Positions 1-228 of a DNA stretch of 64,000 nucleotides are shown piece after piece. This DNA is from Escherichia coli. Its GTDB lineage: Bacteria > Pseudomonadota > Gammaproteobacteria > Enterobacterales > Enterobacteriaceae. The notes under the pieces are model-generated. The model had not been told where the DNA came from, did not search any database, and saw only the letters and a program-made list of their open reading frames with translations. The translations under genes and the position numbers were made by a program. Where the stretch lies: NCBI RefSeq assembly GCF_045037415.1, contig NZ_CP173438.1; one strand, 5' to 3'. Position 1 is the stretch's first letter. The number at the start of each line of letters is the position of its first letter.

Positions 1-228
1 CGGATAGGTAAAACAAACAGGAAACACCCACAACTGTACGATGTGTACTGCTATTGCTCTAATGTGGAGTGCGGTCACTCGTTTGTGATGAATGTTGCTT
101 TCTCCCATTCCGTTAGTCCAAGCGCGCTGAACGGGCAGGGAAGGGTTAAAGAGCTGATTGATGCAATTCCACCCGAGGAACGGGAAAAGGCTTTAAAGTT
201 GCTGCTGGCTGCGCAAAAGAATGGGTAA
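1..228 (+). CDS. Ogr/Delta-family zinc-finger transcriptional activator, 5' end cut by window edge
   Basis: Reading frame is open from position 1 with no upstream stop; motif Y-x-x-C-x-N-V-x-C-x-x-x-F (YCYCSNVECGHSF) resembles the second Cys pair of phage P2 Ogr / P4 Delta, recalled from memory. Confidence 0.45.
   Translation, partial: RIGKTNRKHPQLYDVYCYCSNVECGHSFVMNVAFSHSVSPSALNGQGRVKELIDAIPPEEREKALKLLLAAQKNG

Follow-up and report, generated by a model that had tools for sequence, protein, structure and literature searches.

What can a gene of which only the tail is in view tell us about the mobile element that carries it, and about the phage on which that element may depend? Ogr of phage P2 and Delta of satellite P4 are zinc-finger proteins that, acting together with RNA polymerase, switch on late promoters, and a reading frame resembling theirs runs off the left edge of the stretch of Escherichia coli DNA analysed here (64,000 nucleotides, hereafter the window). 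We propose that a putative late-gene activator ends in window 1-228, which encodes its C-terminal 75 residues, and that this activator probably belongs to an 11.0-kb P4-like satellite which sits at argW and exploits ESSI-2-like helper phages. The gene alone adds little; it is through its context that an island common in E. coli can be recognised as a likely satellite.

Only 5 mismatches separate the window, over all its 64,000 bases, from the collinear sequence of E. coli SK1144 (NZ_AP018784.2), and what lies upstream of the window edge can therefore be recovered from that record, in which the locus is denoted L001 (window position = L001 position - 16000). By its sequence the window is E. coli chromosome of the ST131 type, and positions 4152 to 64000 are unremarkable core chromosome reaching from yfdC to nuoC. 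Frame 1, read from base 1, meets no stop before the TAA at 226-228 and is translated as RIGKTNRKHPQLYDVYCYCSNVECGHSFVMNV...AAQKNG. The initial annotation had placed the N-terminus beyond the window, and it is found there: the true start lies 45 nt upstream of the edge (gene at L001 15956-16228, 90 codons), and the 15 residues left outside, MKMMRMYCPTCQAVA, hold the first Cys pair, CPTC. The motif YCYCSNVECGHSF (codons 16-28 of the window frame, nt 46-84) had been read as the second Cys pair of the Ogr/Delta family. This is borne out both by the spacing of the four Cys, C8-X2-C11-X22-C34-X4-C39 in the 90-aa protein (C34 and C39 being encoded by nt 55-57 and 70-72), and by the PF04606 Ogr_Delta profile, which matches the whole protein over its full length and specifically, with 52.4 bits (E = 5e-14). 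Even by itself, the 75-residue fragment within the window reaches 37.7 bits (E = 2e-9; profile positions 13-47 of 47), which is above the curated Pfam gathering score of 26.3, so the motif is no chance occurrence.

When the protein is aligned with P2 Ogr, P4 Delta and two ESSI-2-type regulators, none of the four Cys (C8, C11, C34, C39) varies, there is a single Ogr_Delta domain, and a size of 90 aa in an 11-kb satellite-like island agrees with the family, which has about 70-110 aa per domain and belongs to P2-like phages or satellites. In RefSeq the protein is WP_000783295.1, under the name 'ogr/Delta-like zinc finger family protein'. These matches confirm a genuine Ogr/Delta-type zinc-finger gene, already so named in public E. 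coli annotations, and the protein itself is an ordinary, annotated, uncharacterised member of the family; no solved structures were found for its relatives. As a family member it would be expected to bind zinc and to contact the alpha subunit of RNA polymerase. The annotated start is supported by a Shine-Dalgarno-like AGG ahead of the first ATG, which diverged relatives have kept. Relatives also share a box, CTGGCRGGC, some 25 nt ahead of the start codon, and no sigma-70-like promoter was found upstream of the gene.

The element around this gene is an island of 11.0 kb at tRNA-Arg(CCU), bounded by 20-nt direct att repeats, ATGGTGTCCCCTGCAGGAAT, of which one copy lies at window 4076-4095 and the other 11.0 kb to the left, outside the window, at L001 9067-9086. 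From the far end to the tRNA it holds alpA, ORF286, the capsid gene, an Ash/Icd-like ORF, two small ORFs, the primase gene, the iterons, ogr, cos, sce7726, sce7725 and int (Table 1). The capsid protein is of full length and belongs to the P2 family of major capsid proteins (PF05125, E = 1e-66). ORF286, directly before it, is a conserved, all-helical protein of 286 aa for which neither a family match nor a detectable homologue was found, and its profile comparison with Sid and Psu was negative; among the other island proteins there were no structural or terminase family matches. The Ash/Icd-like ORF (Pfam Phage_ASH, E = 3e-32) encloses C4 and isrK RNAs, which suggest an RNA-based immunity of the P4/P1 type, and the iterons, which are conserved in relatives with about 65-74% identical Ogr-like proteins, probably make up the replication origin. 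Two minor features may be recorded here: a CCCAGC hexanucleotide microsatellite of about 9-10 copies just inside the left end of the island (L001 9205-9262), and a convergent overlap of 21 nt (window 2741-2761) in which sce7725 and the integrase gene meet at their 3' ends.

Table 1. Features of the island, from its far end to the tRNA (window positions unless L001 is given)
Feature	Position	Strand	Remarks
AlpA	far (left) end of island		PF05930 Phage_AlpA
ORF286 and P2-family major capsid genes	L001 9788-11675		upstream of window
C4 antisense RNA and isrK RNA	L001 11850-12095		inside Icd-like/Ash ORF; Rfam 81 bits and 69 bits
Primase-helicase, alpha-type	upstream of iterons		895 aa; Zn_Ribbon_Prim, Toprim_3, DUF927
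Iterons	L001 15690-15900 (window -310 to -100)		11-13 GTTAC/GTAAC (GGTAACA/TGTTACC) in the 283 bp primase-ogr gap
ogr/Delta-like zinc-finger gene, 3' part	1..228	+	75 codons and stop of a 273-nt gene
cos (packaging) region, ESSI-2 type	424..590	.	A/T-rich CTGAAAA-type motifs on the left; 19-nt core 557-575
sce7726-family gene, first of cargo slot	908..1789	+	NF033832, 175.6 bits (NCBIfam)
sce7725-family gene, second of cargo slot	1811..2761	+	NF033831, 242 bits (NCBIfam)
P4-type tyrosine integrase	2741..3916	-	40% identity over 406 aa to P4 Int
tRNA-Arg(CCU) (argW), integration site	4077..4151	-	att repeat = its 3' end

How far, then, is this a P4-like satellite, as had been suggested from the presence of the activator? 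Between the island and P4, identity amounts to 40% for Int, 37% over 316 aa for the N-terminal part of alpha, 46% for orf88/AlpA, 58% for the 'cI' ORF (the match of the Ash/Icd-like ORF) and 39% over 61 aa for cII. No match to P4 epsilon, Gop or Beta was found in the island, and a tblastn search of the island loci with P4 Sid and Psu returned nothing at E <= 1e-3 in any of them. P4 has 11.6 kb in the order int, gop-beta-cII, cos, psu-delta-sid, whereas the island has 11.0 kb, carries neither of the Sid/Psu capsid-size genes and possesses a capsid gene and ORF286. Concerning the genes that had been sought upstream of ogr, the alpha-type primase-helicase gene does lie immediately upstream, but sid and psu are missing from the island; the remark that no psu-like gene follows ogr also holds, there being 680 bp of non-coding DNA and then sce7726.

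P4-like satellites have been given a definition of seven components (PMC8628076), of which the island has four to five: an integrase, an AlpA-type regulator, an alpha primase and the Delta component are present, while Psu and Sid are missing, and because of these two the island would escape this definition or rank low under it. Compared with the P4-like satellites of de Sousa and Rocha (PMC8628076, PMC10085698), it has in common Int, AlpA, Delta, alpha primase and the Ash-family/C4 RNA region (with isrK), as well as the size of about 11 kb, the integration into a tRNA gene and a hotspot adjoining cos. It departs from them in that Psu, Sid and the epsilon protein are absent, in that it carries the P2-family major capsid gene and ORF286, and in that its cos, which is not of the P2/P4 type, and its nearest relatives are of ESSI-2 type. 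With these refinements the suggestion of a P4-like satellite is supported. Judged by its genes, the island is not a capsid-forming PICI (cfPICI), since the connector and terminase genes are missing and only the capsid gene is there; no portal, terL, terS or scaffold gene of helper type was found in any island locus. SaPIbov5 Ccm is likewise a satellite-encoded homologue of a helper major capsid protein, in a cos-packaged satellite, and differs from the present case by its Gram-positive host and its unrelated sequence; no Ogr-type activator is known to accompany it. In the open-access literature we found no paper which describes a capsid-bearing, Ogr-bearing P4-like island with an ESSI-2-type cos, or a satellite of ESSI-2/Seongnamvirus phages, and the variant appears to be undescribed there.

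Regarding the relatives of the Ogr-like protein, its best matches among all GenBank phages are the single Ogr-type regulators of ESSI-2-like Peduoviridae, with about 48-53% identity over 86% of its length: Cronobacter ESSI-2 (genus Seongnamvirus), Escherichia ESSI2_ev phages, Yersinia vB_YenM_324 and Salmonella SW3/SI7. The groups of Vibrio K139/Kappa, Aeromonas phiO18P and Haemophilus HP1/HP2 come second. Similarity to the ESSI-2-type regulators reaches past the finger into the C-terminal half, and by these matches the window protein is on the ESSI-2/K139/HP1 branch of the Ogr/Delta family, not on the P2/P4 branch. These regulators (such as Seongnamvirus ESSI-2 gp32, YP_009792324, the E. coli prophage protein WP_074519680 and that of Yersinia vB_YenM_324) have, as annotated, about 17 extra N-terminal residues compared with the window protein, and their genes occur once per genome, after the portal gene, in complete phage genomes of 29-31 kb.

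The recovered full-length protein, with its first Cys pair in place, is much farther from the two activators with which it had been compared. P2 Ogr (NP_046785) is likewise a single domain within the size range of 72-90 aa and with the same C-X2-C-X22-C-X4-C spacing, but shows 28% identity over 39 residues and a differing C-terminal half, and does not have the extra Cys at -2 (YCYC) which the window protein shares with the ESSI-2-type proteins. P4 Delta (NP_042043) has the Pfam Ogr_Delta zinc finger too, but only 21% identity, and is a 166-aa tandem of two Ogr domains. Its gene is within the sid-delta-psu operon, whereas the window gene stands alone after the primase gene and the iterons; both belong to an integrative satellite of about 11 kb, lie upstream of cos and a defence hotspot and are transcribed towards them.

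The second and third lines of evidence come from the capsid protein and from cos. The best phage matches of the capsid protein are again in the ESSI-2/vB_YenM_324 group, with 47-50% identity. Within the phage collection, window 424-590 has matches in ESSI-2-like phages alone, with 68-77% identity, and in the ESSI-2 record this match runs off the record end and resumes at the start; window 561-575 is the 15-nt terminal repeat of that genome record, GCGGGTGCGGTGTAG. We aligned the window with six other satellite loci (including relatives of about 65-70% Ogr identity), ESSI-2 and an E. coli ESSI-2-like prophage, and a 19-nt core, GCAGGCGGGTGCGGTGTAG, proved invariant in all seven satellite loci as well as in the two phages, while similarity is wholly lost about 15 nt to its right. 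The phages with ESSI-2-type regulators carry this same core. It was also found in at least 120 IMG/VR contigs, with a helper-type tail gene beside it in 65 of the first 80. The cohesive-end 19-mer of P2/P4 is absent (best match 12/19), and a cos of ESSI-2 type instead of P2/P4 type means that the helper is probably not P2. Taken together, cos, activator and capsid are three independent features which point to ESSI-2-like phages as the partner, and not to P2. With the nearest phage relatives of two proteins, Ogr-like and capsid, in one group and an identical cos core, the link to an ESSI-2-like (Seongnamvirus) helper can be drawn, and the helper can thus be named from sequence.

Head modules of helper type occur in 47 of 5,426 complete E. 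coli genomes, and no contig of about 11 kb bounded by cos, which would be a sign of packaging, was identified among the IMG/VR contigs. An intact ESSI-2-like prophage was seen in the dog E. coli isolate 20KM0223N, between mntS and mntR (NZ_CP151045.1, about 1,501,860-1,534,000; L009/L010). It has its own Ogr-type gene of 107 aa after the portal gene, and a cargo of DprA, a hypothetical gene and DUF6680 adjoins its cos, from which it follows that the helper has a cos-adjacent hotspot of its own.

The island core is found beyond SK1144. Within the sister islands of AH04 (L007) and BR1220 (L008), a core of 6.8 kb, from ORF286 to cos, is about 96-96.5% identical, and the integrase/alpA module is a different one, with the integrase at the opposite end. 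Between the AH04 copy of ogr and that of the window there are 5 nucleotide differences, all synonymous; the BR1220 copy is interrupted by an IS3 element. Among the IMG/VR contigs, syntenic relatives with 64-76% identity of the Ogr protein keep the order orf286-capsid-ash/icd-hyp-hyp-primase-ogr-cos, and no helper-type portal, terminase or scaffold genes were found in them.

What changes is the cargo. Homology with the sister islands ends right after cos, and the slot behind it contains sce7726/sce7725, Kiwa (KwaA/KwaB, in AH04) or Shedu (in BR1220). P4 carries a variable defence hotspot adjacent to cos (PMC9122126), and the end of homology together with the differing cargo identifies the sce7726/sce7725 slot as a hotspot of the same kind. 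The sce7726 protein is related to P4 cII (PADLOC model 'cll', E = 1.2e-18), in agreement with the identity given above, and RefSeq calls P4 cII itself 'sce7726 family'. For sce7725 there was no match in PADLOC, and a relation to P4 beta was considered and dropped, as the loose similarity of the N-terminus was not significant by BLASTP. The pair is a candidate two-gene defence system; no literature on sce7725/7726 function was found among open-access texts.

From these parts a course of events can be proposed by analogy with P2 and P4, and it is by such analogy that we infer the island to respond to a helper. Upon infection by an ESSI-2-like helper, or upon its induction, the Ogr-like protein would bind DNA upstream of the helper late promoters, and possibly of island promoters, and would recruit RNA polymerase, so that the head, tail, terminase and lysis proteins of the helper are made. 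The 11-kb island would then be cut at its helper-type cos and packaged, and the island capsid homologue with ORF286 would probably replace Sid and Psu in the control of capsid size. A fuller reading, which we put forward tentatively, is that an undescribed P4-like branch may parasitise ESSI-2-like (Seongnamvirus) phages, with this gene as transactivator of the helper, with its own capsid protein and ORF286 in place of Sid/Psu for satellite-sized capsids, and with a helper-type cos beside a swappable defence slot. Practically all of the ST131 lineage represented here might carry such a branch, and other hosts might have diverged forms of it. If this is true, there would be a second route of capsid hijacking in the P4-like world, through a satellite-encoded capsid homologue, and the movement of sce7726/sce7725, Kiwa and Shedu between strains would be accounted for.

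The DNA target is where another explanation has to be weighed, namely that the protein regulates only genes of the island (the alpA-orf286-capsid operon, ogr itself or the defence cargo) and does not transactivate a helper. The upstream site of the Ogr/Delta family is a dyad, TGT-N12-ACA, near -55 in P2/P4, and P4 Delta is established to activate the promoters Psid and PLL of P4 itself, which favours regulation inside the island, as does the place of ogr just upstream of cos and the cargo slot. Our search for this dyad, which recovered the P4 sites at Psid/PLL as a control, found two copies in the island, one before alpA and one before ogr, each at a distance of about 65 bp upstream, and this is no more than chance over the locus. 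Neither copy is conserved in the sister or diverged islands: the one before alpA is missing from the sister islands, and the one before ogr, which overlaps the last iteron, is lost in two diverged relatives, L035 and L041. In the terL/scaffold promoter regions of ESSI-2 type the dyad was not found even with one mismatch, and with its chance-level count, its lack of conservation and its absence from the helper terL/scaffold region it gains no support as the target in this branch. Further, a cargo which varies while ogr stays constant is hardly what control of the cargo would predict, and an identity of about 48-53% with the helper-type regulator, along the entire protein, suggests that the two share their DNA targets. 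Regulation confined to the island is unlikely on this evidence.

Other searches for a target site were made on both sides. A de novo search for repeated dyads in the E. coli ESSI-2-like prophage gave nothing recurrent at the starts of late operons, and a comparison of short words between helper promoter regions and the sequences upstream of island alpA/orf286 gave words at chance level only and no shared motif. A dyad TTCGG-N13/14-CCGAA at the terL/scaffold junction is conserved in two helper-type phages and is not in the islands.

It might also be that the island is a decaying remnant, in which an ogr-like gene without function is passed on with the ST131 clone. At 100% identity, the opening 4.2 kb of the window recur in hundreds of complete genomes of E. 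coli. With a coverage of at least 80%, the ogr-cos segment occurs in 441 of the 5,426 complete genomes, including EC958 (ST131), and more than 99% identity in 420 of 498 matching genomes fits clonal inheritance. In ST131-type carriers the island may indeed be spreading only clonally, and no helper-type prophage was seen in SK1144, EC958 or the other carriers seen. Insertion elements, which are found in the island of several genomes and in one strain within ogr, would also fit decay. Against this, all ORFs of the island, the att repeats and cos are intact, the five substitutions in ogr relative to the sister island are without exception synonymous, and the gene order is kept down to 64% Ogr identity in spite of different integrases and cargos. 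We consider a remnant improbable; the reading of a helper-exploiting satellite is the one we retain. As to the insertions themselves, IS1, ISEc23, ISEcp1 or IS4321 lies within the window 1-4200 stretch in several otherwise identical genomes, and sce7725 is listed twice in at least one of these, which suggests a split by insertion.

A zinc-ribbon protein might further have a role other than transcription, for instance as an anti-repressor or by inhibiting a helper protein, and have only the fold in common with the family. That motif searches of island and helper regions found no target site would agree with this, and so would the lack of a P4 epsilon homologue, by which some other gene must derepress or sense the helper. 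Since, however, the Ogr_Delta match is specific and full-length, and the closest relatives are single Ogr-type genes after the portal gene in complete Peduoviridae genomes, such a role is very unlikely. Least of all do we expect a canonical orthologue of P4 Delta serving a helper of the P2/186 type, which the P4-like integrase, primase, AlpA and RNA region and the motif noted at the outset might have led one to assume, but which the low identities to P4 Delta and P2 Ogr, the single domain without a tandem, the absence of sid and psu and a cos core identical to that of ESSI-2 make extremely improbable.

In three IMG/VR loci (L033, L034 and L036), ogr-like genes of about 70% identity adjoin T7-like terminase, tail-fibre and lysozyme genes without other island genes, and these are probably satellite remnants abutting an unrelated prophage.
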